Part shown: positions 12,557 through 31,401 of the stretch, one piece after another
Numbering within the stretch: the first letter of the stretch is position 1
Layout: each line of letters opens with the position of its first letter
Source: a virus
Length of the DNA: 64,000 nt
Direction: 5' to 3' (one strand)
Virus record (IMG/VR): IMGVR_UViG_3300011114_001049
Coordinates: 1-64,000 of that record
Position numbers and translations under genes: made by a program
The notes under the pieces: generated by a model
What the model saw: only the letters and a program-made list of their open reading frames with translations
Databases searched by the model: none
Told to the model about the DNA's origin: nothing

Positions 12557-12760
12557 GGTTTAATGAAGTTTACTCCGTAGTAGGATCCACGCTGCAGGTT
12601 GGGGTCTCTAAGAATTCCACAGAGACCCGATCCACTGGATCTTTGCACCCGATTCCAGGAATCTTGCACTGTCTAGGTGGTCTCGCAAATATATTTTAGG
12701 AAACGCATTACGGATTGGAGTATTATAGTTATATTTACTTATAACTTAAAAACTTGATAT

Positions 12761-12940
12761 ATGAATAAGAGAAAACAAATTGAAAAGGCAGAAGCATTCC
12801 TAAAGCTTTATGGATTTACCCAAGAAGATTATGTAGTTTCCCTACAGGGTCCCACTATAATTCTCTCGATTAGTGGTAATCAAAAGATGGATGGAAACCT
12901 AAAGAACGAATTATTAAACATAGGTATGCTGATCCTGTAA
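12761..12940 (+). CDS. Small hypothetical early protein (59 aa), paralog of the 14830 N-terminus
   Basis: MNKRKQIEKAEAFLKLYGFTQEDYVVSLQGPT... Confidence 0.7.
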   Translation: MNKRKQIEKAEAFLKLYGFTQEDYVVSLQGPTIILSISGNQKMDGNLKNELLNIGMLIL

Positions 12941-12953
12941 TAAAAGTTTAAGT

Positions 12954-12979
12954 AAGCCGGTTTAAATACCGGCTTTTTT
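12954..12979 (+). terminator. Rho-independent terminator
   Basis: AAGCCGGT...ACCGGCTT + T run. Confidence 0.8.
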
Positions 12980-13157
12980 AGCACGTAACTTTGCAGGTCT
13001 CTGAAGTGTAGAGACCCCGTCTACTGGATTAATTGTTTTAACACTTGGAAAAATAGATTGGATTTATAGGACGAGGTCTCGCAAATATATTTTAGGAAAC
13101 GCATTACGGATTGGAGTATTATAGTTATATTTACTATATAACTTAAAAACAAACAAC

Positions 13158-13295
13158 ATGAAAAAAGATTTGGTTTTAATCGCGTTTCAGGTATGGGCAG
13201 CTGCACTAATGTTGATACTTGTAGTTTCAATCGGATATGCTGTTTGGTCGGTATGTACGGGTAACTATTCGGGCACCGCTTGCCGAGAGTTTTAG
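13158..13295 (+). CDS. Small single-TM early protein (45 aa)
   Basis: MKKDLVLIAFQVWAAALMLILVVSIGYAVW... after promoter 13126. Confidence 0.7.
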   Translation: MKKDLVLIAFQVWAAALMLILVVSIGYAVWSVCTGNYSGTACREF

Positions 13296-13369
13296 ATAAC
13301 TTCCATCGTGAGTAAGGGTCCTGCTGAAGGGCCCTTTTTAGTTTTAGGATAATTTAGTATAATAACAAT

Positions 13370-14167
13370 ATGAAAGAAGAAATATACGAGCAGATAGGGA
13401 GTCTGTGTAGAGCAAAAAACCTAGGCACAAGTTATCGTAACACAGATAAGCCAACCCCTCGTGTCCAGTGGATCGAGACTCTGCTCCAAAGATTAGGCAT
13501 AGCCTATGAGCTGGACGAATGGCACCGCACCAGTGGTCAGCGTTGCTGGAACATCTATATACACTCCGTAGTAGAGAGTCCGATCGTAATCATGGCTCAT
13601 CACGATATTGTAAATCCAGCGAGTGATAATGCGAACGATAACTCAGCTTCAATAATCAATGCGATTGCAACCAAACTGCAGAGACCAGAAGTCATGCTAG
13701 TCTTGACCGATGGAGAAGAAGTCGGCGGACTAGGCGCGGCTCGTTATGCAAAACTTGTTCTGAATAGATTATTACCTCGACCCGTTTGGGTACTCAATTT
13801 CGAACTTACGGGTCGAGGCGGTAAGAGCTGGTTTATCGGTGATAATATAGAAGGTCCGCTGAAGAGATATCTAGTAGAGGAGCATGGCGCGGAGCTAGTC
13901 AGTGTTCCGTTTAACGATTCAGTTATAATGCGGAGAGAAGGTATTGACTCTTGCGTAATTAACCCGTTGCCAAAGGACGAGCATGGAAAGTTTGAATTAT
14001 GGCGGTTAGGAGTATGTCATAGCCTAGCCGACACAGTCGATGAGGTCTCCACTGGGGAGATGAAGGAATTTGTTGAAGAGGTAGTTTTACCGATTATCGA
14101 CGGTTGGAAAAGACCAGCGGTTGGGCGATGGGCAAAGATCTTGAAGTGGTCCCGGTCTCGCAAATAA
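13370..14167 (+). CDS. M28-family zinc peptidase
   Basis: AHHD, ANDNSAS, TDGEEVG, NFE and C-terminal HSLADT metal-ligand motifs. Confidence 0.85.
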   Translation: MKEEIYEQIGSLCRAKNLGTSYRNTDKPTPRVQWIETLLQRLGIAYELDEWHRTSGQRCWNIYIHSVVESPIVIMAHHDIVNPASDNANDNSASIINAIATKLQRPEVMLVLTDGEEVGGLGAARYAKLVLNRLLPRPVWVLNFELTGRGGKSWFIGDNIEGPLKRYLVEEHGAELVSVPFNDSVIMRREGIDSCVINPLPKDEHGKFELWRLGVCHSLADTVDEVSTGEMKEFVEEVVLPIIDGWKRPAVGRWAKILKWSRSRK

Positions 14168-14237
14168 GTTTTGGGGAACGCATACAACGAATATCCAAAT
14201 TGGTTATATTTACTTTTAACTTAAAAACTTTAAAACT

Positions 14238-14576
14238 ATGAAACTAATAAAAGACCTAGGTCCAAGCTACTTCATCTTTGGTAACAAGGGTAACGTGTGG
14301 AGTAACACCGCACACGCCTACAAGTCAGGTAAAGGTAACCTATGTAATACCCCAGCCTTAAGTACTAATCACGCTAGAATCGAGGGAATAGATGAAGTAG
14401 GTTGTCCGCGCTGTCTAGAAGAGATCGCTAAACTTAGGGACTGTTCTATTTGTGGAGAGTCCTATGGAAGGTACGGTAACACTGCAGAACCAGTAAACGG
14501 CGGTAGATGTTGCGACTCATGCAACCTAGAGAAAGTAATTCCTGCAAGACTCATCGCAGCCTTCAATAGCAATTAA
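14238..14576 (+). CDS. Cys-rich zinc-finger hypothetical protein
   Basis: CPRC, CSIC...GRCCDSCN. Confidence 0.7.
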   Translation: MKLIKDLGPSYFIFGNKGNVWSNTAHAYKSGKGNLCNTPALSTNHARIEGIDEVGCPRCLEEIAKLRDCSICGESYGRYGNTAEPVNGGRCCDSCNLEKVIPARLIAAFNSN

Positions 14577-14829
14577 GTATTTTAAATATACATTTTACAA
14601 AGAAAAGGGTTCCAACAGTGAGCCCTTTTTTTGCGTCAAGTCACTCCGTAGTGTACACCTAGCAGGTCTGCACAGGTCTCTCAAGACCAGAGACCAGTAT
14701 GGATTAAACAACTATGCGGACACTTGCCTAACCAGTGCAGTTGACCTGTGTCTCCCAACTATATTTTATGAAGGGTATACAACAGATACCCTAATTGGTT
14801 ATATTTAACCTTAACTTAAAATACTTACT

Positions 14830-15243
14830 ATGAATAAGAAGATCGAAAGGATTGAAACACTTCTAGAAGATTATGGATTTACTAATAAAGATTATACTAT
14901 TTCCTTACCTGGTCCAACACTACTCTTTGCGAGGAGCGGACAGATTAAACTTAAAAAAATAAAGGTGTGTCGACTTATTTTTCCAGCCCGTCTAGACAGG
15001 GTAGGGTCTCATAGATATATTTTTAGTAATGTGTACAGCGCATTCCGAATTTGGTTATATTTACTTAATAACTTAAAAACAGAAAGTATGTATTCACTAG
15101 ACTGTAATTATTACACAAAGGAGTTCTCAACCATTGATGAGCTTTTGGGAGACGTTGTCACCAACGGAATGGACCCCAACTACGAGATCACACGCAACGG
15201 CCAACCTACTGGCGAGATGGCGATTGACCTGATCGAATTTTAA
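14830..15243 (+). CDS. Apparent fusion: truncated paralog of 12761 read through a promoter element into a 51-aa gene (15088-15243)
   Basis: Promoter element 15005-15080 lies inside the ORF; own ATG at 15088 (MYSLDCNYY...). Confidence 0.65.
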   Translation: MNKKIERIETLLEDYGFTNKDYTISLPGPTLLFARSGQIKLKKIKVCRLIFPARLDRVGSHRYIFSNVYSAFRIWLYLLNNLKTESMYSLDCNYYTKEFSTIDELLGDVVTNGMDPNYEITRNGQPTGEMAIDLIEF

Positions 15244-15413
15244 TTTCCTGTATTATCCAGGCGCGAGGGCAGGTGGAGACGCTTGCCCTTTTTCTTGTAC
15301 TTGATTCCGGGAATCTTGTCTAGTTGTGCGGGTCTCTAAGATTTATTTTCGTAAACGCATACAACGTATTTGGATAATGGTTATATTTACTATATAACTT
15401 AAAAACAAACAGT

Positions 15414-15632
15414 ATGAAAAATCTTAGAGAAAAGTATGAAAATGCCAGAGCTCTCTTAAAAGCCGGCAAACGTGAAGAGGCAAGCGCTCTCCTTAATTTT
15501 GGAATCTACCAATTGGCTAGCGCTACTTTAGAAGGAATTCCTCAAGATCAAGTCGTAGAGGGAGCAACTGTCGATCGCTGGAAGGAACGCTTCTGGTTCG
15601 AGTTAGAAGCCAACGACCTGTTGGAAGGGTAG
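15414..15632 (+). CDS. Hypothetical early protein
   Basis: 72 aa between promoter 15382 and terminator at about 15649-15673. Confidence 0.75.
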   Translation: MKNLREKYENARALLKAGKREEASALLNFGIYQLASATLEGIPQDQVVEGATVDRWKERFWFELEANDLLEG

Positions 15633-15728
15633 TCGATAGGACTCCAGTAAGGCTCGAGAAATCGGGCCTTTTTTGTAAACCTATTTAGAGACATGAGTAT
15701 AATAGGAATATAAACTTATATTTAAAAA

Positions 15729-16019
15729 ATGGACTCTCGATTTGAAGAACTATATCAGGAACTTATGGAAGTTGAGGTAGACAAGAAAGGGTCTCCCATC
15801 TTTTACTGGCGGCTCGACGAGGAGTACTGTGTCAGGTGGGAGGAATCACTGGTTTATTATAACGATCGCTGGGATTTACTCCGTAGAGAAGCTTTAAGTC
15901 ACCTTAACGAGCTTGACGAATTAGAGCGTCGTTTCTTAGAGACAGAAGACTACGAACGATGCAGCACGATACGAGACCTTCGCGAAAAGTTAAAGTCTGA
16001 ATATGCAGCCTGGTGCTAA
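15729..16019 (+). CDS. Hypothetical protein with UVR (UvrB/C-like) coiled-coil motif
   Basis: FLETEDYERCSTIRD. Confidence 0.65.
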   Translation: MDSRFEELYQELMEVEVDKKGSPIFYWRLDEEYCVRWEESLVYYNDRWDLLRREALSHLNELDELERRFLETEDYERCSTIRDLREKLKSEYAAWC

Positions 16020-16159
16020 GGGTCTCCCAACTATATTTTCCTAGTTTTGAATTTTGTATTAAGAAAAAAGGGTTGCAAAGCTCTCGCAAAAAAAGTAGAT
16101 AAAAATTGTTATTTGTTATATTTTTTAGTTATATTTAACTATAACTAAAACGCAGAAAG

Positions 16160-16366
16160 ATGGACAAGAAAGAAAAAGATACAGATATTAAAATCATGGC
16201 AGAGTGTCGACCGTGGTCATCTCTCACCTGTGGCTCGCTCAGGGCAATGATGACTATATGTAAGAATCGTGGCTTAAAATATTATGATTCGGGAAAAATA
16301 GCTAAATGGGTAAATAACAACGAGCTCTCGATACTCCTGGAACGGGAGCTCGCGTCTCGCAACTAG
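16160..16366 (+). CDS. Hypothetical early protein
   Basis: 68 aa after promoter 16130. Confidence 0.65.
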   Translation: MDKKEKDTDIKIMAECRPWSSLTCGSLRAMMTICKNRGLKYYDSGKIAKWVNNNELSILLERELASRN

Positions 16367-16368
16367 TG

Positions 16369-16530
16369 ATGAAAAAGATAGAGGCAACTATGCAGGAAAT
16401 ATGGGCGGCAACTCGACCTGTAGTACAGAAGAACAAGAAGAAGTATTCACGTAAAAAAAAGAAAGAAGATGATTGGAAAGAAGAACCTATTAAGAACTCA
16501 GTCAGAGACAGAGGGCATGACCAAGATTAG
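16369..16530 (+). CDS. Small basic protein (53 aa)
   Basis: MKKIEATMQEIWAATRPVVQKNKKKYSRKKK...; below ORF-track cutoff. Confidence 0.55.
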   Translation: MKKIEATMQEIWAATRPVVQKNKKKYSRKKKKEDDWKEEPIKNSVRDRGHDQD

Positions 16531-16708
16531 TGGCGTTTGTGTTTTTACTAATGAGTGGTATGAATGTGAAATACCAACAGATGGACTTGAGAGTTGGCTC
16601 AACGGTCAGCCTATACAGACCGCGCTGCCTACAGTATCTCGCGATGTCCGTGAATTCCTGATCTCAGGAATATCTCCTACCGGTTGGGACAAGACTTTCG
16701 GTAAGTAA
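16517..16708 (+). CDS. Hypothetical protein
   Basis: MTKISGVCVFT...REFLISGISP; start reassigned. Confidence 0.65.
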   Translation: MTKISGVCVFTNEWYECEIPTDGLESWLNGQPIQTALPTVSRDVREFLISGISPTGWDKTFGK

Positions 16709-16959
16709 TAGTTTGTTTTAAGTTAGAGACACTGGGTCGGCGTAAGCTGGCCCTTTGTTGTTTTACTCCGTAGTAAACCCCTGCCCGCCTAGGCCAGGTA
16801 GAGACCCCTTCACCAGGCTGCAGGATCCCAATTTGCGTATAAATATTTTTTAAAATCAAGGTTGGATTTAGAGGACGCTGTCTCGCAAAAAAGTTTTAAC
16901 AGAATTTTCAGGTGTCAATTATTTTGGTTATATTTACTTATAACTTAAAAACTTAAAAT

Positions 16960-17148
16960 ATGAACTCAATGTCAACAGGAGAAATCAGAGCAGAGCTCGT
17001 AGAATTAATTAACGGCGGTATATTAAACGTACCTAACCTTGTTAAATTCTTTAAGACGAATCGTCCAGGTGCTAACCTAGTAACGGTTAAGGAAGAAGCA
17101 AAAGAGATAGTCGCAGAGGTAAAAATGGTAATAAAAAGAGGATACTAA
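16960..17148 (+). CDS. Hypothetical early protein
   Basis: 62 aa after promoter 16929. Confidence 0.7.
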   Translation: MNSMSTGEIRAELVELINGGILNVPNLVKFFKTNRPGANLVTVKEEAKEIVAEVKMVIKRGY

Positions 17149-17151
17149 ATC

Positions 17152-17523
17152 ATGACAAGAGAACAAAGAAACAAGGCAATCCAAAGATTGGAGCTATTAG
17201 AATTAAGGTTAGATGGACTTAGTGCATTATCATATAATGTATCAGACAAAGGTGGCATAGAGCTCTTAAGCGTCATCGACGAGACAAAGGCAGAGCTTGA
17301 CCTTTTAGAAAAAACTCTAGCAACCAAATGGGAGTTCCTTTTCAATTTCAAAAGCGGTGGCTGGAATTCAGAAGTAGCATTTACCCGAGAGGAAGCTATC
17401 GAGCAGGCAATTGCCAAATATGGTCAACCTTCTGAAGACCATAAAGTATTAAACATCGATGTCACCTCGTTTAGAGTGTCAACGACCCATGACAAGGCAG
17501 GTTTACTATCCCTATTTCATTAA
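17152..17523 (+). CDS. Hypothetical early protein
   Basis: 123 aa followed by terminator at about 17540-17566. Confidence 0.7.
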   Translation: MTREQRNKAIQRLELLELRLDGLSALSYNVSDKGGIELLSVIDETKAELDLLEKTLATKWEFLFNFKSGGWNSEVAFTREEAIEQAIAKYGQPSEDHKVLNIDVTSFRVSTTHDKAGLLSLFH

Positions 17524-17735
17524 GTAATAAGTATATAAGAAGAGCGAGAATTATCTCGCTTTTTTTATGACCAGTGGAAAGGCGTCTCCCAAAATTATTA
17601 GAGACCGGTGTAGTCCAGCAGATTCCTTGGAAAAAACAGACCGGCTCCAGTGGATGGAGTCTCTGAAAAACTTTTCAACAGGATTGTTAAGTATGAAAAA
17701 GATTGGTTATATTTACTTATACTTAAAAACTAAAC

Positions 17736-17954
17736 ATGATACGCGCTAAACAGGAAAAGAAAGGACCCATAGTTATTGACTTAACTGGACCTGACGGTAA
17801 TGCATATTCCCTTATAGGAAGAGCTAAGGACTTCGCAAGACAACTAGACTTAGATGCTGCTGTAATTACTAAAGAAATGATGGCAGGAGATTACGAGAAT
17901 CTAATAGCAGTATTTGATAATTACTTTGGTTCTTTTGTAATACTTGAAAGATGA
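17736..17954 (+). CDS. Phage hypothetical protein (IDLTGPDGNAY)
   Basis: 72 aa after promoter 17708. Confidence 0.75.
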   Translation: MIRAKQEKKGPIVIDLTGPDGNAYSLIGRAKDFARQLDLDAAVITKEMMAGDYENLIAVFDNYFGSFVILER

Positions 17955-18175
17955 TACCAACTACCAAACAAGAATGGTGGAGTCTAGTTAGACAAGACTT
18001 AGCCAAATGGAACTTAAAAAATCACCAAGATGATAGAATGAGCATAGGTGATTGGATAGGCGAAGTGGGTCCTAACATACATGGATGGATTGCTTTTAGA
18101 GATCGCTATGGAGATTGGGATGTGTCATTGACTGGCTATGAAGATTCTGATGATGATGAAGATGAAAAGAACTAA
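17951..18175 (+). CDS. Hypothetical protein with acidic tail
   Basis: ATGA overlap with the upstream gene. Confidence 0.65.
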   Translation: MIPTTKQEWWSLVRQDLAKWNLKNHQDDRMSIGDWIGEVGPNIHGWIAFRDRYGDWDVSLTGYEDSDDDEDEKN

Positions 18176-18182
18176 ACACGCT

Positions 18183-18479
18183 ATGGATTTTTGGATAGAA
18201 AATAAAGTATTAAAAACCTGGCTTAGTTCTAGGGAGATCGAATACCGTGTCATTGCAAGCGACGTGATTGACGGAGATCTAAACCCAGTCACTGGCGAAT
18301 GGTTGATAGTAAGAAGCGATGGGCTCGTCTACTCGCTGAACGCTAGACTCTTTATGAATATTCATTATTCTACAAAAGGTGTACGAGCAAGATGGAGTGG
18401 AGACGATGTGCGCGTGCTCGAATCCGATAACACTACTAGGATTTACAACTATCGAGGTTTCTTAAAGAGAGTAATGTAG
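18183..18479 (+). CDS. Hypothetical protein
   Basis: ORF, start reassigned to MDFWIE; terminator at about 18521-18546. Confidence 0.6.
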   Translation: MDFWIENKVLKTWLSSREIEYRVIASDVIDGDLNPVTGEWLIVRSDGLVYSLNARLFMNIHYSTKGVRARWSGDDVRVLESDNTTRIYNYRGFLKRVM

Positions 18480-18667
18480 TAATAAGATCTTCTCAAACAG
18501 TACTTCTTAATTTGACAGACGAAGGTCGGCTCCAGCTGACCTTTTGTTGTTTACTCCGTAGTCCAGTTATCTGTCCAGTGTACCGGGTCTCTAAGAAATA
18601 TTTTCAACAGGATTGTCAAGTATAGAAAGAATTGGTTATATTTACTTATAACTTAAAACTAGAAGAC

Positions 18668-18841
18668 ATGATTAAAGCAAAGATTAAAGACTTAAGAACA
18701 AAGCAACCAAAGATAGGTGACCATGTGGAGTTCACTATCGACCTGGAGACACTGACTGATGAGGTCGTTTATGTAAACGGCAATATCATTGAAGGTAAGA
18801 AGTGGGACCTAAGTTACATAAAACTAACGATAAAGAAATGA
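18668..18841 (+). CDS. Small hypothetical early protein
   Basis: MIKAKIKDLR... after promoter 18637. Confidence 0.65.
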   Translation: MIKAKIKDLRTKQPKIGDHVEFTIDLETLTDEVVYVNGNIIEGKKWDLSYIKLTIKK

Positions 18842-19227
18842 AGATACTACTTGAAACGGAGGAGGCTGAAAACTTCTTCTATAATTCTCTATGTAATGGG
18901 CTGACTGAGTTACGCTATTATAACTTAGAGCTTGATTACAAAGCCGCTGATTATGCGGCTGCTGCTAAAAAACTGAAGAAGACTGAGCAGTCGGTTTGTT
19001 ATGAAGACGTGCTCATGCAGATCTTACGCGACGGTAAGAAGCTTTCCATTATAGACGATGGGTATGATGGCGAGTATTCAGTGTCTATTACCCTTGCTGA
19101 CGTGCATGAGAGAGTAGCCTTGACTCCACTTAGTCACCTAATGGATGCAGTCAACGAGACAGACGACGCAGTTACTGCCGACTGTATATTACAGACAGTC
19201 TTCTTTAAAGAAATTGTTTTTGGTTAG
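18838..19227 (+). CDS. Hypothetical protein
   Basis: MKILLETEEA...DAVTADCILQTVFFKEIVFG; ATGA coupling. Confidence 0.7.
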   Translation: MKILLETEEAENFFYNSLCNGLTELRYYNLELDYKAADYAAAAKKLKKTEQSVCYEDVLMQILRDGKKLSIIDDGYDGEYSVSITLADVHERVALTPLSHLMDAVNETDDAVTADCILQTVFFKEIVFG

Positions 19228-19321
19228 AGCCGGGTGCACAGGTCTCGCAAAAAAGTTTTCAACAGGATTGTCATGGTTAAAAAGAATTGGTTATATTTAC
19301 TTATACTTAAAAACTTAAAAC

Positions 19322-19570
19322 ATGAACCTATTACCAACAACACACGACGAACTTAAAAGAGTACTAGCGCAGCGTATTGTACAGTTCGCTTTCAGAAAAC
19401 TAGACGGCAGTCTACGCACCGCAGTAGGTACGACTAATTTATCTAACGTCCATGTGGACCATCACCCTAAGGGTGTGCGAGAGAGCTCACCTAAAGTGGT
19501 TGTTTACTTTGACATAGAGAAGAAGGAATGGAGAAGCGTAAGTCGTCGAGTTGACGTGTTTATTGCATAA
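19322..19570 (+). CDS. SH3 beta-barrel/WYL-like (DUF2693-type) small protein
   Basis: FAFRKLDGSLRTAVGTTN...YFDIEKKEWRS. Confidence 0.75.
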   Translation: MNLLPTTHDELKRVLAQRIVQFAFRKLDGSLRTAVGTTNLSNVHVDHHPKGVRESSPKVVVYFDIEKKEWRSVSRRVDVFIA

Positions 19571-19603
19571 CTAATAAAATAAAAACTGATAAACTAAAAT
19601 AGC

Positions 19604-20092: not shown

Positions 20093-20268
20093 GCTAGAAG
20101 AAGTTGTTTTAAGTTAGAGACGAGGGTCGGCGCAAGCTGGCCCTTTGTCGTTTTACTCCGTAGTAAACCTTACTACTGGGTGCAAAGGTCTCTCAAACTT
20201 TTTATGGCAGGATTGTCATGGTTAGGAGTAATTGGTTATATTTACTTATAACTTAAAAACAAAAGCAG

Positions 20269-20511: not shown

Positions 20512-20521
20512 AACAGGACCC

Positions 20522-20728: not shown

Positions 20729-20733
20729 ACGCT

Positions 20734-22572: not shown

Positions 22573-22650
22573 TGCACAGGTCTCGCAAAAAATGTTGACC
22601 AGATTGTACCAGTATAAAAGAATTGGTTATATTTACTTATACAACAATTG

Positions 22651-24156
22651 ATGACTATGGAAAAGATACAGATAAAGCAGATTCCAGCCGAGTACGTGGC
22701 AAGAGCAAAAGGAACCGTCTACGATAGAAAGAGATTAGCCGGCCTGCGTGAACTACCTGAAATAGTAGTTAGTCGTTTATCGCAAGACCGGTCGCTTACT
22801 GTTTTAAAGGAGGTTGCTCTTCGTACTGACCTTACACTAGAACAGGTGAAGACACTAAACTCGCCGTCTAATATAGTAAACATGTACGAGCTTAGACGAA
22901 GCCTATTTCGTAATCATAGCATAAGTCACGATTGTGTAAAGTACCTGATTAGAGAGGAAGGTTTAGTTGAATCTGTAATCTTAGCTAACCCAAACATAAA
23001 GGCTAAAGAGTTTATTGGGATCGTGAAGGAGCAGATTGAATTAGAAAGAAGTCGTTACTCCGTAGATAGAATAATAAAGTCAGCGTTCTCTAATCAAGGG
23101 ATAGGTAATACTGTACTCATTGCTCTTTTAGAATTTTTGAAAGATTGTTATCACATAAAGTCAGAGCACAATTATGAAAGTCTAGTTCAAATACTCGTTA
23201 CTCACAACGATTCGCTTACTCCTCGGTCGATTGAATGGTTGTGGAAGCATGCAAATACTCGAATAAAGAAGAGAGGTGGTATCCAGTCTAAGCCACTTAT
23301 TAAATGTATAACAGCTCACCATAACTGTAGTGATGAACTCATTAATAAAATCATATTAGGATTAGAGGATGAGTACGTTGGCGACCTGTTTGGGTATGCG
23401 CAAGTAGAGATTAGAGAGAGTTATGTTGCAAGTAGAGAAGTCGTAAATTTACTGGCTCCACTATGTATCAATGGAACTGACCAAGTGATTAAGAATACTT
23501 CCATATTTATTGCTAATCACATGGGAGAGGTTGAGCTTACTGACAGCATAACACAGCAGCTTATCTCAATTAGAGATAAAGAAGTTCAACTTGCTTTGCT
23601 AAAGAATGGAGTCCTTGCTGGCACTAGCCAAGAACGTGAAGCAGTTGATATTATAGTATCGTCTACTGACGAATTGGAGAGAGAGGAATGGAGGTACCTA
23701 GAAAATTCTAATTTAATTACAGAGGATCACCTGATAGCCCTGACTTCACATCGTTCTTGGAGAGTTCGGCAGCTTGTAGCTGAGTCTACTCGAGTTCCTT
23801 TAGCTCAACTTGAAGTACTTGCAAATGATGGCGACTCAGACGTAGTCAGAAGTGCCACGCAGAATGGGAGATACCACCTGGTAAAACACTCCGTAGAGTA
23901 TCAAAGAAGAGCAGAGTTAAACTGTGTAGCTATGGCAAGAATACATAGGGCATGTAGCGAAACGATTGAGGCAATCGCGGCTGACTCCTATGCTAAAGAA
24001 TACACCGGCTTTTCAGAATTCGGCAAAGCGATAGAACTGTTAGCCTCGCCTGAATTCTCAACTTTCATTGAAACATTCAGCTATAAAGATCGCAGAGAAC
24101 TAATGAAAGATGGCATTGACCTAGCTACTTTAAATCTTCTTAGTCAATTTTTTTAA
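22651..24156 (+). CDS. Alpha-solenoid (LRV/HEAT-like) protein
   Basis: ~500 aa; SWRVRQLVAESTRVPLAQLEVLANDGDSDVVRSA. Confidence 0.7.
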   Translation: MTMEKIQIKQIPAEYVARAKGTVYDRKRLAGLRELPEIVVSRLSQDRSLTVLKEVALRTDLTLEQVKTLNSPSNIVNMYELRRSLFRNHSISHDCVKYLIREEGLVESVILANPNIKAKEFIGIVKEQIELERSRYSVDRIIKSAFSNQGIGNTVLIALLEFLKDCYHIKSEHNYESLVQILVTHNDSLTPRSIEWLWKHANTRIKKRGGIQSKPLIKCITAHHNCSDELINKIILGLEDEYVGDLFGYAQVEIRESYVASREVVNLLAPLCINGTDQVIKNTSIFIANHMGEVELTDSITQQLISIRDKEVQLALLKNGVLAGTSQEREAVDIIVSSTDELEREEWRYLENSNLITEDHLIALTSHRSWRVRQLVAESTRVPLAQLEVLANDGDSDVVRSATQNGRYHLVKHSVEYQRRAELNCVAMARIHRACSETIEAIAADSYAKEYTGFSEFGKAIELLASPEFSTFIETFSYKDRRELMKDGIDLATLNLLSQFF

Positions 24157-24229: not shown

Positions 24230-24538
24230 ATGCAACCTACTGATAATCAAATGAATGATCGAAGTATTCCCTGCTTTAGCTTGGGAGCCATGGATGTAAG
24301 TTCATTTACGACAACTCATCGTGCACTTATCTCAAGCGCAGTAGAGTCGGCAGTATACTGGGCAGTCTCGAATAAATTAGAAGAAGTAGAAGTATTTGAA
24401 ATAAAGGAATTGGACGTCGTCTTCTCATTAAAGAAGGAGGAATTTAGGACAGCATTAAACGGCTGTATTGAATACTCAATATCAATAGAAGATTACGAAA
24501 AGTGCGTAGCTATTAATAAACTAAAAACTAATTTATGA
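24230..24538 (+). CDS. Hypothetical protein with C-terminal UVR-like motif
   Basis: YSISIEDYEKCVAINKL. Confidence 0.65.
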   Translation: MQPTDNQMNDRSIPCFSLGAMDVSSFTTTHRALISSAVESAVYWAVSNKLEEVEVFEIKELDVVFSLKKEEFRTALNGCIEYSISIEDYEKCVAINKLKTNL

Positions 24539-24762
24539 GTAAGCAGAGAGCATTAGGATTTAAAAAGATTGCATGTAAAAAATGTAACGAACTCGTAGAC
24601 AAGGTAGACGAGCAGGCAGAATCAATAACCTGTAGCAAGTGTGTTCAGACTGAACTACGCGGATACCCTGATATCACTCGTGAAGAGTGGTTTAGATTAG
24701 ATACGATACGTAAAGAGAAAGAGCTTGAATTAGAAGAGTCTGCTTCTGGCAAAGAAGAATAA
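24535..24762 (+). CDS. Zinc-ribbon hypothetical protein
   Basis: CKKC...CSKC. Confidence 0.7.
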   Translation: MSKQRALGFKKIACKKCNELVDKVDEQAESITCSKCVQTELRGYPDITREEWFRLDTIRKEKELELEESASGKEE

Positions 24763-24837
24763 AAAGTTATTGACAGCATTGTACATTGTCGAAACAAATA
24801 GTTATATTTACTACATAAACCAATAAAACTAAAGATC

Positions 24838-25557
24838 ATGGGCTTTGAAACATCAGAAGGACTTCCAAAATACTTTCGTGAAATAAGAAAGAGCGGAGGT
24901 GTAAGTAAAGAAAGAGAGAAGGTATTGGCTATTGAGATAGCTAACGGTAGCACAACGGCAGTCCGCGAACTTGCTGAAAGCAATCTATTACTTGTAGCTA
25001 GAATTGCAAACCGCCATAAGGGGCAAGGGGTTCCCATAGACGACTTGATACAGGAAGGTAATATTGGACTACTTGAAGCTGCTCGTAACTTTCGACCAAA
25101 TCACGAAAGAGGTTTCGTACCCTATGCCAGCCTGTGGATTCGTAAGTATATTAACGAGACTGTTGCTAAGACTGGCCGAGTTGTCCGCTTACCCCACAAT
25201 CAGGAGTATGAGATCTATAAAGCAAAGATGAGAGGCGAAGATCCAGACGTGCCTACTCGTGTAAGCCTAGACAAGCCGATCAGCGAAGACAGCGAATACA
25301 CGTTAGCCGACCTGATCTTGGTGTCACGGCCTGAAGTTGAGATAGAGATTGAGCTGGAAGAGATTAAGTTCAAGGTAGGTATCGCAGTAAAATCCTTGAA
25401 GACCCGTGACCGTGAGATAATATTTGATTATTTTGGAATCGACCGTGAGTACTCCTTAAACGCGAAAGAGATCGCCGAGAAGCACTCAATGACAAACGTT
25501 AGAATAAGTCAGATCGTTCGCTCCTCACTAGAAAAAATGAAGAGCTCAATGGTTTGA
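24838..25557 (+). CDS. Sigma-70 family RNA polymerase sigma factor (RpoD-like, no region 1.1)
   Basis: Region 2 SNLLLVARIA...DDLIQEGNIGLLEAARNF...YASLWIRKYI; region 3 VSLDKP; region 4 LKTRDREII...EIAEKHSMTNVRISQI. Confidence 0.9.
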   Translation: MGFETSEGLPKYFREIRKSGGVSKEREKVLAIEIANGSTTAVRELAESNLLLVARIANRHKGQGVPIDDLIQEGNIGLLEAARNFRPNHERGFVPYASLWIRKYINETVAKTGRVVRLPHNQEYEIYKAKMRGEDPDVPTRVSLDKPISEDSEYTLADLILVSRPEVEIEIELEEIKFKVGIAVKSLKTRDREIIFDYFGIDREYSLNAKEIAEKHSMTNVRISQIVRSSLEKMKSSMV

Positions 25558-25612
25558 TCCATAGCTGTAGAGAGTCTCAGCTTTTAATAATAAACATTTA
25601 CTCCGTAGTAAG

Positions 25613-25960
25613 ATGAAGGATATATTAGCATTTAATGGAGAAGACGAGGTCTTCTTAACCGAATTAGAACTAGAAGACTTAGTTAGGAACAAAACTAAAG
25701 AATTCGTAGAATTATTCCAGTATACCGCAGTCTATCTAGACGTGATAAACGAATTAGAGAAAGACCTAGGTAGTGCACTGTGCTCGATCAACTCTTCTCC
25801 AATGTCAATCGAACGTAAGAAGAGACTTGATGAAGGTCACTATGTCTTGATTGAGTTATTGGTAGAGCACCTGGGTTTTGATATAGCTGGGATAATAATT
25901 GCAGATACTTGTAACGCAATAAACTTAGATAAAATAAGAAGCAAAAATGGCAAAAGATAA
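25613..25960 (+). CDS. Hypothetical protein
   Basis: 115-aa ORF in operon. Confidence 0.65.
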   Translation: MKDILAFNGEDEVFLTELELEDLVRNKTKEFVELFQYTAVYLDVINELEKDLGSALCSINSSPMSIERKKRLDEGHYVLIELLVEHLGFDIAGIIIADTCNAINLDKIRSKNGKR

Positions 25961-26207
25961 TGCACTAGATCGTATACTTAGGGAGATGAGTGAGATCGAC
26001 AGGGTCGTCTGTATGGAAGTAAAGTACCTTGCAATCATGCATGAGCAGGACAAACCCGTCTCGACCGAGCAAGAAAGCAGAGAGCTAGTTGGCTCGATTG
26101 TCGACCTCATCGAATTCTTTGAACCTCAAGAAAGATACGAAGAGTGCGCACAACTAGTAAAGATACTTAATAAGATAAAGAAGCAATGCGGCCAGAAGTA
26201 TACGTAG
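25947..26207 (+). CDS. Hypothetical protein with UVR-like motif
   Basis: FFEPQERYEECAQLVKI. Confidence 0.65.
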   Translation: MAKDNALDRILREMSEIDRVVCMEVKYLAIMHEQDKPVSTEQESRELVGSIVDLIEFFEPQERYEECAQLVKILNKIKKQCGQKYT

Positions 26208-26437
26208 TTATCGGTAACGGGGAAGAAGGAGAGTGGGAAGAGTCTCTGCAGAAATCTTTGGGTGTCTGTAATAATGCTAAGAAAGCATATGATATTGCTT
26301 TATTTCTAGGCCAGATATCTAGACCTGACTTGGGTTATCGTAAAGTATTAGAGACCCTAAACAAGAAAGGTGCAGTCACTGTCAAGCAGAGAGAAGGAGA
26401 GCAGGCTGCAACAATAGTAAAAGTAAAAAAATATTAG
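26186..26437 (+). CDS. Hypothetical protein
   Basis: 83-aa ORF in operon. Confidence 0.6.
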   Translation: MRPEVYVVIGNGEEGEWEESLQKSLGVCNNAKKAYDIALFLGQISRPDLGYRKVLETLNKKGAVTVKQREGEQAATIVKVKKY

Positions 26438-26439
26438 CC

Positions 26440-26601
26440 ATGACCGATCGAGAAAAACTAAAAGCAGTCGATGATTATATTAGAGAGAGTAAAGAGCTCT
26501 ATTCGCAGGCAATACACGATACCGGCAACGAGATGGAAAAAACTATGTGGGCAAGCATTATAACTGCGCTCGACGGTGTTGGAGAGATTCTAGAAAGGTA
26601 A
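26440..26601 (+). CDS. Small hypothetical protein (53 aa)
   Basis: MTDREKLKAVDDY...; stop abuts GGTCTC at 26603. Confidence 0.6.
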   Translation: MTDREKLKAVDDYIRESKELYSQAIHDTGNEMEKTMWASIITALDGVGEILER

Positions 26602-26686
26602 GGGTCTCGCAAAAGTTTTTCCGCAGGATTGTCAAGATTAGGGAATTATAGTTATATTTACCTATAACCAATTAAACTTAATAAAG

Positions 26687-26791
26687 ATGGATAAGGAAAC
26701 TTGTAAACACGAAAAAACATACGTAGCAGTACGCCACGTATCAGGGATTAAGCTAGTAAAATGTTCTCATTGCGGTAAAGTAATTAATTAA
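26687..26791 (+). CDS. Tiny zinc-ribbon protein (34 aa)
   Basis: MDKETCKHEK...KCSHCGKVIN after promoter 26653. Confidence 0.55.
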   Translation: MDKETCKHEKTYVAVRHVSGIKLVKCSHCGKVIN

Positions 26792-26797
26792 AGAGAT

Positions 26798-27190
26798 ATG
26801 AAAGCAGAATTTAACAGACACAATCGAGATTTTAATTGTAGTTTTACAATTGAGTTCAACGTAAAGAATCCTACCATACCTTTGACCGATAGACACATCG
26901 AGCTCATGGAGTCAGAATGGCTGCATGGAGACCTAACAAATAATTATTCAACTGATTGCTTTGAAGAGATAATGGAGAGTAATTATTCTTTTATTGAAGA
27001 CTGGAGTTTTGCCGGTCGCAGCAACGGCTGGTGGGTTCTAATTTGCAAAGGTTCAGAGTCACAGGTTAGAGCTAGTTCTCTTCGCCGAATCGAAAGAATT
27101 GTTGAAGACTATTTTAGCAAGTACGGCAAAATGATAATTAATAATTTTGAAATTTTTATAAAGGAGAGAGAAGAGGCAGAGATCTCTTAA
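26798..27190 (+). CDS. Hypothetical protein (GRSNGW motif)
   Basis: 130-aa ORF. Confidence 0.7.
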   Translation: MKAEFNRHNRDFNCSFTIEFNVKNPTIPLTDRHIELMESEWLHGDLTNNYSTDCFEEIMESNYSFIEDWSFAGRSNGWWVLICKGSESQVRASSLRRIERIVEDYFSKYGKMIINNFEIFIKEREEAEIS

Positions 27191-27266
27191 TTTTTATTTG
27201 ACCCAATTGTCAAGATTAAAAAGAAATTATTATATTTACTTATAACCAATTAAAAACTGAACGCAT

Positions 27267-27692
27267 ATGTCAACTAGAAGCAGAATAGGAATGGAGTTTA
27301 CCGACGAGAACGGTACTCGACTAGTTAAATCAATCTACTGTCACTTCGACGGATATCCGGAAGGAGTCGGGCAGAAACTACAGAACTTTTTTCTAGATCG
27401 GGAAAAGGTCGACGCACTCGTCTCGCTGGGAGATATTTCTTTTCTTGAGAAGGAGATCGTAGCGAAGGGCAATCACTCATTTGACCAGCCAGAAAGAGGA
27501 GTGACTGTTGCCTACCATCGAGACCGTGGAGAAGATTACTGTGCACCGCGAATCGATGCAGGAGTAGATGCCTTCTTTGAATCAGATTTTGAAGAGTACG
27601 GTTATGTCTTTAGCGAAGAAGGAGAGTGGCTAATTGGAGGAGTCGAAGATATCGCCATCCCTTTACCATACGCCATTTCGCTGAGAGAATAA
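27267..27692 (+). CDS. Phage hypothetical protein (MSTRSRIG...IYCHFDGYP)
   Basis: Recognisable recurrent phage motif; after promoter 27231; terminator 27747-27772. Confidence 0.75.
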   Translation: MSTRSRIGMEFTDENGTRLVKSIYCHFDGYPEGVGQKLQNFFLDREKVDALVSLGDISFLEKEIVAKGNHSFDQPERGVTVAYHRDRGEDYCAPRIDAGVDAFFESDFEEYGYVFSEEGEWLIGGVEDIAIPLPYAISLRE

Positions 27693-27907
27693 GCTTAGGT
27701 CACGTCCAAGGCTAAGGCGCCCAACCCTTGGGCTGAACCATAAGAGAACCCGACTAGCTATCGGGTTTTTTTGTGTGAGTCAACTTGGAAGCTAAAACCG
27801 GTGTGCATGGGTCTCTGGTTAAATGTGCAAAAAATAGTTCGCCAGATTGTCATAGTTAAAAGGAATTAGTTATATTTACTTATACTAACCAACTAAAAAC
27901 TTTTATT

Positions 27908-28360
27908 ATGAAAAAGAAGATCGTCGTATTCAGATTCGGCTCGCTCGTCCCAACTAAAAGCGATGTGCTTGCAATGATGGATAAACTCGACATGCATCCA
28001 ACCGATGGAGAGCTACTTGGCTGTCCTATCCCTAATGGCGTGGCATCGCTCTTATACACAGACAAGAGCGTGGCCCAGGTCAAGCGGGCATTTGACGAGG
28101 CTGCTGCAGAAAACGAGGATAATTTGCCAATAATCATACTTGATGAGGCTGGTCTTGCGGGCACCACGCTCAACGCGATGGGCTTTGAAAGGTTCGATGA
28201 AATGAACAGAGTCTTCGACCTAGAGTTCAATACGGCCGAGGTCAGCAAGTCCTGTACCTTGAGTCTTGACGAGCTACTCGATCTAGTGGGTCAGGTGGGA
28301 GTAGGTGGCCTAGCCGAGGCGGAGTTCGCAAGATTAAAGGAACTAACCAATAACGCATAG
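27908..28360 (+). CDS. Hypothetical protein (C-terminal LSLDELLD...G..GL..AE)
   Basis: 150 aa after promoter 27871. Confidence 0.7.
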   Translation: MKKKIVVFRFGSLVPTKSDVLAMMDKLDMHPTDGELLGCPIPNGVASLLYTDKSVAQVKRAFDEAAAENEDNLPIIILDEAGLAGTTLNAMGFERFDEMNRVFDLEFNTAEVSKSCTLSLDELLDLVGQVGVGGLAEAEFARLKELTNNA

Positions 28361-28362
28361 GG

Positions 28363-28743
28363 ATGAGACACAGGACTCGAGTACGTTTCAACCTTGGTAA
28401 AGGAGGGAACTATATGAAGTGGAGAATCCTGAGACCCGACGGCTCAGTCGAATTTCTAGAACCCGCTAAGGTACAGTTGATCATGACCGGCTGTACCTTT
28501 AAGAACTCAAAGCGGGCGGCCCAAAAGATCTATGATGGTGCGAACAAGACTGTCTGTGCATGGGTGCTCTGCGACGAGCTAAGAGTAGAGACACCAGGCA
28601 GGCTAGTGGATACCTCACTAAGAGCTCAGTACAATCCGAGGGTAGCCCCCAACTGGACCGTGCTTGAGAGAGACGTCGACAACGGCAGCACTGGCAGGCT
28701 ACACACGATTGGTTCAAGGATTTACGTTACGGGTACCATATAG
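28363..28743 (+). CDS. Hypothetical protein
   Basis: 126-aa ORF. Confidence 0.7.
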   Translation: MRHRTRVRFNLGKGGNYMKWRILRPDGSVEFLEPAKVQLIMTGCTFKNSKRAAQKIYDGANKTVCAWVLCDELRVETPGRLVDTSLRAQYNPRVAPNWTVLERDVDNGSTGRLHTIGSRIYVTGTI

Positions 28744-28808
28744 TATAAATGGATTTTATCCAGTGATTATAATTTAGTATTATTAACTAAACCAATTAAA
28801 CCAGCAAT

Positions 28809-29891
28809 ATGATAGAGATAAGAGGAGGCCGTAAGGAACGCATCGTTCGCGAATGGTTTAACCAGAAACACGAAGGCAGGGTACCGAGGGCAAAGGTGCT
28901 AGAGCTCTATGAAGAGTTTGAGCTTAGCCAGCCCGACAGTGACCTGAGCTATGGGCTATTTAATGGTGTCATCAAGAAGCTTATGGAAGAAGGATACTCG
29001 GCCAGTGAGGTGCTAGAAGGGGACTCCGTAGTAGAGGCCCAGGTCCTGCTAGTCGAGGACATGGAGTTTCCTGACTTTGCACTGCACCGGACAGGCAAGG
29101 CAGTCGATCGACTCTTCTCAGACCACGAAGAAGGAGGAGGAGTCTACGGCGGTACGGTTAATATAGTCGTCGGCGAGTCGGGTGTCGGTAAGTCTACCGT
29201 GCTCTTTGATCTCTTGGCCTGTGTAAAGGCTAGGACACCAGAGACCCGGATACTCTATGTATCCAGCGAGATGACACGTAACGATATACTCTTCTATTAT
29301 CGCAAGTCACCGACAATCGGTGCAGTGCCTACCTTACTGCTTAACGATCACCTAAAGAGCGGTACACTGGCTAAGGTATTAGAAGACACCTTTAAGGGAG
29401 AGTGGGATATAGTGGTGCTTGATTCCTATCAAGACGCGGCGATCAAGCTGACTGAAGCAATGGGCTGGCGGCAGAAGCGGTCGGAAAGCTGGCTAACGGG
29501 TCTTATGATCGAGTCGGCTGAGACCCGAGGCACGGCTGTCTTGGCGATACAGCACATGACGAAGACCGGCCAGTATATGGGTAGTACCTACCTTAAGCAT
29601 GCTACCACCTCGATGTTAGAGATCAGGTTCGATCCAAATGGCGGTCGCTATCTTGAATTCTCAAAGAATCGTAGGGGCGGTAGTCAAGTAAACAGGCGAT
29701 TGTATTATGACCTCGATCCAGAGTATGGAGTAGTCTACGACGAGCTTCGTTTTGAAGACGAGTATGGAGTAGCTGAAGAGGAGCAGACTGAAGCAAAGGT
29801 AGTTGACTTCTGTGATATGGTAGACGTACCTGACGAGGTTAAACCCGATGGTATGAGTTATACTGAATGGATATTTGGTAAAGGAGGATAA
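28809..29891 (+). CDS. RecA-superfamily ATPase (RadA/Sms- or KaiC-like)
   Basis: Walker A GESGVGKST, YVSSE, Walker B IVVLDS, HMTK.G, SKNR. Confidence 0.85.
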   Translation: MIEIRGGRKERIVREWFNQKHEGRVPRAKVLELYEEFELSQPDSDLSYGLFNGVIKKLMEEGYSASEVLEGDSVVEAQVLLVEDMEFPDFALHRTGKAVDRLFSDHEEGGGVYGGTVNIVVGESGVGKSTVLFDLLACVKARTPETRILYVSSEMTRNDILFYYRKSPTIGAVPTLLLNDHLKSGTLAKVLEDTFKGEWDIVVLDSYQDAAIKLTEAMGWRQKRSESWLTGLMIESAETRGTAVLAIQHMTKTGQYMGSTYLKHATTSMLEIRFDPNGGRYLEFSKNRRGGSQVNRRLYYDLDPEYGVVYDELRFEDEYGVAEEEQTEAKVVDFCDMVDVPDEVKPDGMSYTEWIFGKGG

Positions 29892-29926
29892 GGAGTTTGG
29901 TTGCCCCCAAAGCGGGGCGTTGGTTA

Positions 29927-29953
29927 GAGGGAGTCGAGAGGCTCCCTTTTTTT
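29927..29953 (+). terminator. Rho-independent terminator closing the early module
   Basis: AGGGAGTC-GAGA-GGCTCCCT + T run. Confidence 0.85.
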
Positions 29954-30130
29954 GTCTCCCGTGCACGGGCGTGTCGCCGCGTCGCGCGATAGCCCAGGCT
30001 TGCACAGGTCTCTCGTCTCTGGTTAATTACCCCTGCCCGCCAGAGACCGATGCCACCCCGCTGCCATGGAGCTCGGAGGCCCCTGGAAAGCGGTACCTTT
30101 CCGGAAACTAGCGAACTGAAGAAAGTATAG

Positions 30131-30823
30131 CTACATAAGATCGCTAAGCTCCTGATCCTCCTTAACTGTAGGCTTGTCTTCCCAGTCGGGTACTATCTTA
30201 CCTGGATGCTGCACCTTCTCCCGCTTTCGGGGTACGGGTAGGGGATCCACTCCCAAGCTATCTAGTCGGTCTACTCCCGCCTTAAGCAGCAGGTTTACAA
30301 GATCTTTCTCTTGCTCGGCCTTATATTCGGGTACCTGGATGGCCCCGTTGATTACAACTACCTCTACTCCATAGTACTTAAACAGGGCGGGAAAGAGTTC
30401 CCAGCCCACCCTAGCTAACCTACATGGCGTCTCAACTATTACTACCGATACCTTCTTCTTTATTACATCCTGCAGCAACTCATGTAGTCCGGGTCTCTGC
30501 TCTAGACTGAAGCTTGTAGCCGGTGCCCAGTCTTCGTAGAGACGGTCGATCACTAGGCCTCTCACGGCAGACCAGCCCCGGATAAGCTCCTGCTGCCTGA
30601 GCATAGTTCCCCGGTCGGACTCCGTAGTCCCACCTACTCTGGTATAGACCACTGTCCAGTTCTCCTTTATAAGCTTCTTACCTACCATAGCCCAGACATC
30701 GTCATCCCAGTACAGTATCTGGCCGCTGGGCAGCTTTGTAGTCCGGAGTCTACCCCTGTCTGCGTATCGTCGGACTGTCGAGTAACTACACTTGAGTACC
30801 CCCATTGCTTCTCTTACCTTCAT
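30131..30823 (-). CDS. IS607 TnpA-like serine recombinase homologue (N-terminal MerR-type HTH), catalytic Ser replaced by Gly
   Basis: MKVREAMGVLKCSYSTVRRY...G HTH; YTRVGG in place of YARVSS; EDWA, RPGLHELL, CRLAR in place of DRLAR; no tnpB nearby. Confidence 0.85.
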   Translation of the reverse strand: MKVREAMGVLKCSYSTVRRYADRGRLRTTKLPSGQILYWDDDVWAMVGKKLIKENWTVVYTRVGGTTESDRGTMLRQQELIRGWSAVRGLVIDRLYEDWAPATSFSLEQRPGLHELLQDVIKKKVSVVIVETPCRLARVGWELFPALFKYYGVEVVVINGAIQVPEYKAEQEKDLVNLLLKAGVDRLDSLGVDPLPVPRKREKVQHPGKIVPDWEDKPTVKEDQELSDLM

Positions 30824-30850
30824 GTTTCTAGTATATTAGATTTATAGTCT

Positions 30851-30858
30851 TATTTATA
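30851..30858 (-). promoter_or_regulatory. T4-type late promoter TATAAATA upstream of the recombinase homologue
   Basis: Exact TATAAATA 27 bp before the ATG. Confidence 0.7.
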
Positions 30859-31401
30859 CTGGCCAAGCCTGTCCATTTGAGTAACCGCATGAGTAGCTGT
30901 GAGTACTTGGTAAGCGCTGAATAGCCTCGAGTACCACCGGAAGGGTCCCCAATCGGGACTCCGTAGTAAGATCCCACTAGTGAAAAGACCTTTACTGCTA
31001 CCTAGTTTATAGTCTGGGTGCAGACGGCGGCGGTCACCTGGCCTAGTCTAGGGTAGTCGGGTGTCCCTATTGGCTGGTGGTAGTCATGGGTTGGGTAACC
31101 TTGGCCTGCTTAAGGATCCTGTTTCCTGTCACCGGCCTGGGTCCTAGTCTGGTTCTCTATCTAGACTGTGTCTTCTCTTCTCTTCTTATCTAGTAGTATA
31201 GTATAGTTAGGTCTAGGTATCTAGATTAGGGGTAGTTCTATTACTACTAGGCTTACTGGTTTTTTTATTTTTTATTTAGTTATTGGCCGAGAGGTTACTC
31301 CGTAGTCCCATACGGTCTTCATAGTGACTTGGTGAATAACTAACCTAAAGAATACGGATTCTAGCCACAGGTAGAAATAAATAACTTAAAGAATCAGGAA
31401 C

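Follow-up and report, generated by a model that had tools for sequence, protein, structure and literature searches.

A strictly polar nine-base word in the early module of T4-like jumbo phages and its possible link to an IS607-type transposase homologue

Why should a phage keep a nine-base word many times over, always in the same orientation and in a single part of its genome, and what reads it? The question is raised by ACTCCGTAG, a 9-mer that recurs in the early module of a viral contig from IMG/VR (record IMGVR_UViG_3300011114_001049). Bases 1-64000 of this single contig (G000, 100,274 bp) are called here the window, that is, the whole stretch of DNA under study. Our results argue that the word is a DNA signal with an orientation, and they point, tentatively, to an IS607-type serine recombinase homologue (TnpA) encoded in the same module as its reader.

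A polar word confined to one module

The window carries 14 exact copies of ACTCCGTAG on the + strand, between 12572 and 31305 (Table 1), and 0 on the - strand; across the whole contig there is no further copy on either strand. These are the coordinates, the strand and the confinement that a first-pass annotation of this DNA had reported. Its estimate that chance would give well below one copy was also borne out: dinucleotide-preserving shuffles of the window gave a mean of 0.24 copies and a maximum of 2. Variants with one mismatch are few, with 1 inside the region (ACTCCATAG, 30366) and 5 outside it on the contig. Eight of the copies are intergenic and six lie within open reading frames (ORFs), including, as had been described, one on the opposite coding strand: copies 2, 4, 8, 9 and 11 are in + strand genes, and copy 12 is antisense in the minus-strand recombinase-like gene.

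The contig is rated 36% complete by CheckV, so the claim of confinement in a whole genome rests on near-complete relatives. Loci of relatives were retrieved via the sigma protein encoded in the module, and others via the recombinase-like protein. In eleven related records (1.5 Mb), the pattern ACTCC[G/C]TAG was found 131 times in the direction of the array and once in reverse, and in each record it was confined to one module of 8-25 kb. The array/reverse counts were 14/0 in G000, 9/0 in G001, 17/0 in G002, 18/1 in G003, 16/0 in G004, 6/0 in G005, 4/0 in G006, 13/0 in G007, 10/0 in G008, 16/0 in G011 and 8/0 in G012. A composition-matched reversed control pattern gave 8 scattered matches in the same records. 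In support of the confinement, the 13 copies of the sister word in G007 (253 kb, 94% complete) lie on one strand within 11 kb, with 0 elsewhere, and the 10 copies in G008 (271 kb, 100% complete) lie on one strand within 8 kb, again with 0 elsewhere. The lone reverse copy in G003 was considered as a real signal and rejected; it is antisense within a small + strand ORF rather than in front of a minus-strand gene, and chance may account for it.

The word is also remarkably exact. On the array strand, the arrays of the clade with G at position 6 (the G clade) hold 75 exact copies and 7 with one mismatch, against an opposite-strand one-mismatch background of 5, so the word is all-or-none. From 90 distinct G-type instances, the extended consensus is T/G-T/G-T/G ACTCCGTAG T A, then not-T. 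No -35-like, downstream or other element was found in the flanks, and the upstream enrichment consists of terminator stems only. The word has a small self-complementary core, ACT-CCGT-AGT. A longer hairpin, TACT-CCGT-AGTA, was rejected, as its flanking pairs show no covariation. A composite signal made of the word and GGTCTCT 15-30 nt downstream was also rejected after a scan of viral contigs gave 64 single, unrelated matches. Neither ACTCCGTAG nor ACTCCCTAG was found in a phage context in the literature searched.

The word is shared by related phages in two forms. The closest clade, whose sigma proteins are 53-59% identical, has 8-16 copies of the same word per 20 kb, all of them on the strand of the sigma gene, and the more distant branch L077 carries it as well. 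Sister clades (the C clade) carry ACTCCCTAG in like manner, and some lineages mix the G and C forms. One clade (G009, G010 and G013) is wordless. It keeps the sigma gene and the RadA-like gene in synteny, the latter 10 kb downstream, and is without the recombinase-like gene. In G013 (246 kb, with terminal repeats) we found 0 copies of ACTCCNTAG on either strand and no substitute clustered polar word; the candidates for such a substitute in this clade were rejected as coding repeats. G013 has direct terminal repeats, 31% G+C and long collagen-like Gly-X-Y coding repeats both at its ends and close to them (L120:1-7000, L132), and its polar 10-mer TATGACTGGT has 15 copies within bases 689-6986. 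In L090, from a 464-kb relative, the sigma gene has in its neighbourhood a tandem run of some 15 units that contain TGGAAACCTTGTGGGCCATCTGG.

Is the word kept for the protein or for the DNA? Our results argue that it is a selected, orientation-dependent DNA signal and not a protein motif, as had been proposed. In support of this, the word is kept in poorly conserved coding stretches, and at the in-gene copies the amino acids change together with it. The linker of the RadA-like gene is rich in indels and poorly conserved, and yet it has the exact word followed by TA in the window, L066, L068, L070, L071 and L088. In the same linker, L081 and L083 carry ACTCCCTAGTA, with Val changed to Leu, and the ACTCCCTAG of the sister clade also changes Val to Leu. 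Moreover, a stretch of 20 nt around copy 12 is identical in five genomes, with no synonymous change, and the neighbouring codons vary synonymously; L074 has a C-type word at the position of copy 12, with different amino acids. Synonymous loss of in-gene copies was looked for, and the copies in the RadA-like and recombinase-like genes are kept. Together with the strand counts given above for the full contig and the relatives, this conservation at the DNA level upholds the orientation-dependent signal that the first-pass annotation had suggested.

The placement of the word relative to genes is not uniform. About 40% of the copies lie inside genes, and the word is enriched 2.6-fold in stretches without long open frames. 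Among 219 distinct instances, 16% lie 4-22 nt past a strict terminator hairpin, compared to 3.5% of random positions (4.6-fold); in the window, 6 of the 14 copies are just past intrinsic terminators. In six G-clade genomes (the window and five relatives), the gene after the sigma gene has the word just ahead of its start codon, at a distance of 2-7 nt.

These distributions bear on the Chi-like site and the FtsK-orienting polar sequence (KOPS)-like cue that had been proposed for the word, as cues that a host nuclease or translocase would read or that would guide the entry or packaging of DNA. Polarity and exactness are typical of such signals. Chi sites occur genome-wide, in an orientation set by DNA ends or replication, and KOPS or SpoIIIE recognition sequences (SRS) show a whole-arm skew that converges on the terminus. 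In contrast, the word occupies one internal module of 8-25 kb in genomes of 250-270 kb (the scanned records with the word reach 271 kb), as a single local array with none elsewhere. It gathers beside one phage gene and is over-represented past terminators and where genes are lacking; position 6 is G or C depending on the lineage, with both forms in some, and a sister clade lacks it wholly. We therefore give both proposals next to no credence. Strand-specific nick sites in virion DNA would equally be exact, short and on one strand only. Known phage nick sites, such as those of T5, phiKMV-like and LUZ24-like phages, are spread over the genome, not gathered in one module beside one gene, and no nickase candidate was identified here; this explanation is very improbable.

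A recombinase homologue beside the word

The gene around which the word clusters encodes an IS607-type serine recombinase homologue. Its product matches the NCBIfam model transpos_IS607, below the cut-off of that model, and the solved TnpA catalytic domains 6dgc, 6dgb and 3ilx (ISC1926, ISC1904, IS1535). Aligned by profile to 3lhk/3lhf, nine of nine members have lost the nucleophile Ser of their RVS motif, with Gly (as in the window) or Ala in its place; by this alignment, the IS607-type TnpA is catalytically dead. There is no tnpB-sized ORF adjoining the gene and there are no recognisable element ends. The gene is preceded by a late-type promoter, TATAAATA, at 30851-30858 on the - strand; of the 12 relatives inspected, 11 share with the window a late-type box, (T)ATAAATA, 10-30 nt ahead of the start of the gene.

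The association between this gene and the word is invariable. All 28 loci retrieved via the recombinase-like protein carry the array, always antisense to the gene. In each of them, the 450 bp or so ahead of the start hold 2-5 copies and the 5' part of the coding sequence holds 1-3, the latter at non-orthologous positions in the G and C clades. The upstream copies are spaced with a period of 57-58 bp in the C clade and by 240-340 bp in the G clade; in the window, the interval is 339 nt twice (30619, 30958, 31297). The C-clade arrays at 57-58 bp comprise 2-5 units (L083:19104-19283, L152:9569-9809, and also G007:173700-173879, G008:117958-118024 and G012:461-526). Their intervening sequence is not conserved, and a small CCC...GGG palindrome follows each word.

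The polarity of the word, its confinement, its selection as DNA, its tie to the module and the dead active site are observed; the reader of the word and the effect of its binding are what we infer. Our tentative proposal is that the word is the 9-bp direct-repeat binding motif of a late-expressed, dead IS607-type TnpA, with TTTACTCCGTAGTA as the word-bearing sequence form and candidate binding site for the product of 30131-30823. The dead TnpA, with its fold kept and its nucleophile lost, would be made from the late promoter and would dock on the copies of the word late in infection. Once docked, it may regulate its own gene and may block or insulate rightward transcription of the early module, in the manner of stoperators, or it may bridge copies, as happens in the paired-end complex of IS607. 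Since all the copies are direct, they would present one polarity towards RNA polymerase, and pairing or recombination between them would give deletions or duplications, not inversions. Docking of a dead TnpA would explain the 9-bp direct repeats, the invariable cluster at the gene, the absence of both word and gene from one clade, and the confinement to one module. It is in line with the loading site for an organising or silencing phage protein that had been suggested earlier. Among the three roles then offered this is the one we favour, and the dead TnpA supplies a candidate for the protein, whose part as reader is the conjectural portion.

Several observations weigh against this proposal. 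Word and gene are jointly absent through one evolutionary event, in a single clade, and the spacing of 57-58 or 240-340 bp is unlike the 10-11 bp phasing of the IS1535 motifs. The six window sites past terminators lie 80-165 nt upstream of the next early promoter; little transcription should pass there, so these sites are oddly placed for a block of transcription. The enrichment after terminators and the placement 2-7 nt before a start codon suit a promoter at least as well. Moreover, the array contains the gene of a second phage sigma, with altered -10 and -35 contacts, which needs some promoter class. Finally, the recognition helices of the recombinase-like proteins differ greatly between clades, and the word differs by one base. 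We put docking of the dead TnpA forward as somewhat less than an even prospect.

An extension of the same proposal appears unlikely to us: that the dead TnpA has been domesticated as a late, sequence-specific organiser of the early hyperplastic array, bridging directly oriented copies. Bridging would shut or insulate the module, or would bring the borders of cassettes together; the recombination machinery of the phage, with the adjacent RadA-like ATPase, might then exchange, delete or duplicate cassettes, never inverting them.

A phage sigma factor inside the array

The module also encodes a sigma-70-family factor. Regions 1.2-4.2 align to E. coli RpoS, region 3 being about 27 residues short, and an early-type promoter core at 24803 precedes its gene. 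In the alignment to RpoS, the melting residues are retained and the -12 and -35 contact residues are changed. In sigma-70 numbering, Y430 and W434 are kept, the -12 contacts Q437 and T440 are replaced by K and N, respectively, and the -35 contacts are changed. Near-complete sister genomes encode a gp55 homologue elsewhere (phrog_234, E 1e-17 to 1e-19), so the RpoS-like protein is a second phage sigma, needing its own promoter class. In the window's own clade, whose contigs are partial, no gp55 homologue was found with T4 gp55 or two PHROG profiles.

Could the word be that promoter class? It would then be a stand-alone middle promoter, read by the host RNA polymerase with the early phage sigma and needing no -35 box. 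It would form an extended -10-like element and a third temporal class, beside the host-type early and gp55-type late promoters. We hold this, the chief rival to docking and a role that the first-pass annotation had not raised, to be a doubtful possibility. In its support, the sigma gene lies inside the array in all relatives, with an early-type promoter core, and the gp55 homologue elsewhere makes the RpoS-like sigma an extra one, with melting residues kept and -12/-35 contacts changed. ATAAATA late-type boxes dominate the upstream regions outside the module. The word is co-oriented with genes, enriched in gene-free stretches and past terminators, and needs no -35 or other flanking element. 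Its proximity (2-7 nt) to the start codon of the next gene after sigma fits as well; use as a promoter there would give a leaderless or near-leaderless mRNA. A promoter would thus explain the extra sigma, the order of terminator and then word, and the proximity to start codons.

Other results do not fit a promoter. The sigma is kept, with a similar region 2.4, in the clade of the wordless 246-kb genome, where no substitute clustered word was found. In region 2.4, the helix of the wordless clade, FWIRKYLNES, is nearer to that of the G clade, LWIRKYINET, than is that of the C clade, FWIRKRLNLA, so this region fails to track the word, a point in support of the dead TnpA. In the genomes of 253-271 kb, the word is limited to 8-11 kb and is absent from replication genes and other candidate middle genes, and about two fifths of the copies are intragenic. 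In the densest cluster, the copies point away from one late gene or are antisense to it. The next gene of the window (ORF 31402-31890) has its own late-type box, AAATAAATAA, between copy 14 and its ATG at 31402 and about 25 nt before that ATG (31365-31402), and so does not depend on the word as a promoter. In our reading, the word also misfits the A(-11)/T(-7) rule of sigma-70-type -10 elements. Finally, none of the RNA contigs from a 90-95% identical strain, which cover the module in part, starts or ends at a copy; the parts without such cover were not counted as evidence. The clade with the sigma and without the word, and the narrow distribution of the word, weaken the case for a promoter.

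The word may instead act in the non-template strand or in the RNA, as an operon polarity suppressor (ops)-like pause or antitermination site, or as an RNase cleavage site. In the ops-like form, polymerase would be loaded to read through the many terminators of the cassettes. The word is strictly co-directional with transcription, the array has about 20 terminators, and the small self-complementary core would suit such a signal. The E. coli ops core is GGCGGTAG, and GTAG is common to it and the word. Against this, a PF02357 search found no NusG/RfaH-like gene in four records, and many copies follow terminators and lie upstream of promoters, not before terminators. Few rightward transcripts would be expected at the densest cluster, which follows the last early promoter and a terminator and is placed upstream of, and antisense to, a minus-strand late gene; nor is the hairpin extended by covariation. 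We consider a transcription-coupled signal improbable.

The early module and comparison with known systems

The contig derives from an uncultured T4-like jumbo phage of fresh water, and the portal (T4-type), the DNA polymerase (family B) and a UvsW-like helicase are recognised among its products. Its nearest database relatives, by portal or sigma, are uncultured huge phages and Lak phages; no close named phage relative was found at the DNA level, and near-identical DNA is present in river, lake and viral metagenomes. A phage RNA polymerase was not recognised: no long ORF has a DxDGD-type motif, and a 911-aa ORF is without a family match.

The name early module, used from the beginning for this region, fits. 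The early promoter core TATATTTAC, of host type and preceded by TTG-N18/19, has 21 + strand copies between 11652 and 27871. On the same strand, the 11.6-27.9 kb region also has about 20 stem-loop terminators and many small ORFs. Outside the module, the dominant box in upstream regions is the late-type ATAAATA. The shape of the early promoter, TTG...TAnnTTT, which resembles the Bacteroidota promoter consensus, hints at a Bacteroidota host. Three genes of the module are conserved, namely those of the sigma-70-family factor, the RadA/Sms-like ATPase and the IS607-type serine recombinase homologue (Table 1).

Table 1. Copies of the word and conserved genes of the module, in window coordinates
Feature	Position	Strand	Context
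Copy 1	12572..12580	+	Intergenic; 18 nt past terminator hairpin 12531-12554, upstream of early promoter core
Copy 2	13563..13571	+	Inside ORF 13370-14167 (weak Peptidase_M28 match)
Copy 3	14643..14651	+	Intergenic; ~18 nt past terminator-like hairpin and T run
Copy 4	15878..15886	+	Inside ORF 15729-16019
Copy 5	16765..16773	+	Intergenic; 12 nt past terminator 16734-16753
Copy 6	18553..18561	+	Intergenic; 9 nt past terminator 18521-18544, 84 nt before early core 18637
Copy 7	20155..20163	+	Intergenic; 10 nt past terminator 20122-20145, 82 nt before early core 20237
Copy 8	23057..23065	+	Inside ORF 22648-24156 (502 aa, without family match)
Copy 9	23888..23896	+	Inside ORF 22648-24156
Sigma-70-family factor	24838..25557	+	Sigma70_r2 and r4 matches; best RpoS, RpoH, RpoD
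Copy 10	25600..25608	+	Between sigma-gene terminator and ATG 25613 (4 nt away)
RadA/Sms-like RecA-fold ATPase	28809..29891	+	Carries copy 11
Copy 11	29023..29031	+	In indel-rich variable linker of RadA-like gene
IS607-type serine recombinase homologue	30131..30823	-	N-terminal helix-turn-helix and resolvase catalytic domain
One-mismatch variant ACTCCATAG	30366..30374	+	Antisense in recombinase-like gene; the only one in the module
Copy 12	30619..30627	+	Antisense in recombinase-like gene; encodes TTES beside lost active-site Ser
Copy 13	30958..30966	+	Intergenic; 135 nt upstream of recombinase-like start, pointing away; 339 nt from copy 12
Copy 14	31297..31305	+	Intergenic; 339 nt from copy 13, follows A/T-rich stretch

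Some further features of the module were observed. GGTCTCT...AGAGACC hairpins (for example, 12603-12630 and 14675-14697) lie 31-33 nt after the start of the copies at 12572, 14643, 18553 and 20155; they belong to the early-promoter cassette, of which GGTCTC is an anchor, and not to the 9-mer. A gap of 34 nt separates a strong terminator from the start of the ORF at 13370-14167 (13314-13370); it contains no promoter-like element, and the ORF seems to depend on read-through or an unrecognised signal. The G+C content is about 38-40% in most of the module and 46-50% in its distal block at 28000-32000, where the RadA-like gene, the recombinase-like gene and the word cluster lie; this hints that the block was acquired separately. 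In 30.9-31.4 kb, there is no known RNA family or strong structure (fold z-score -1.7). Between 12045 and 27270, contigs of 90-97% identical lake and river strains join the cassettes of the window in other orders, with skips and back-jumps at early promoter cores and at terminator/word borders (for example, 16790>20176 and 20152>18548). These joints look like promoter early stem-loop (PeSL)-type cassette shuffling in natural populations. An integron-like arrangement of recombinase and cassette sites was rejected because the recombinase is dead and convergent with the array, and the word is at only about one third of the cassette borders.

If the word is indeed a docking site, it would provide a clear case from a bacterial virus of a transposase domesticated into a DNA-binding factor with dispersed directional sites, and a handle on how jumbo T4-like phages switch off, insulate or reshuffle their fast-evolving early arrays. 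If it is a promoter, it would be the missing middle transcription class, paired with a second sigma, of a large uncultured phage group without MotA/AsiA. Either way, the word is an exact and easily searched metagenome marker of the module, and it offers a test object with a 9-bp site, two candidate readers and natural variants of one base.

How does the word compare with known systems? Single-element promoters are read by phage sigma factors, as by T4 gp55 at TATAAATA, and SPO1 gp28 acts as a temporal switch. The word resembles these in being short and near-invariant, without a -35 box, co-oriented with genes and accompanied by a phage-encoded sigma. It differs in that the sigma here persists in a wordless clade and the word is absent from typical middle genes.

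The PeSL cassettes of T4-type phages are small ORFs set between strong early promoters and terminators of the stem-loop kind (Arbiol et al. 2010, PMC2839356). The array described here likewise combines small ORFs, strong early promoters and stem-loop terminators, and the strain joints are at repeats. In contrast, the 9-mer is not part of the published PeSL (PMC2839356); it lies between stem-loop and promoter in only about one third of the cassettes, and also inside genes.

For a block by bound TnpA, the closest functional analogue would be the stoperators of Cluster A mycobacteriophages (L5 gp71), which are asymmetric, oriented with transcription and of lineage-varying consensus, some of them around the regulator gene (PMC6550527). 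Stoperators are 13 bp long, occur throughout the genome and serve lysogenic immunity in temperate phages (PMC6550527). The word, too, is present in many short, asymmetric copies oriented with transcription, with G and C variants by lineage, which cluster around the gene of the candidate regulator itself. Unlike stoperators, it measures 9-12 bp and is found in one module only, in a lytic-type T4-like phage; its orientation is not flipped across the minus-strand gene at 30131-30823, and some 40% of its copies are in coding sequence.

IS607-family TnpA proteins nucleate on 9-bp direct-repeat motifs beside the 5' end of tnpA (in IS1535, IS607 and ISC1926), with one DNA-binding domain per motif, and multiple dimers bridge two DNA segments or ends (PMC6188088). 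These motifs show a helical phasing of 10-11 bp and lie within 20-60 bp of the element terminus (PMC6188088). The phage word likewise forms 9-bp direct repeats beside the 5' end of a serine recombinase gene whose product has an N-terminal DNA-binding domain. The phage protein differs from the IS607 family in lacking the nucleophile Ser, tnpB and recognisable element ends; its putative sites have their own, wider spacing in place of 10-11 bp, and at least 10 further copies are dispersed over up to 25 kb of the early region. Directional sets of regulator- or transposase-binding sites are already known, and this word would be a further case.

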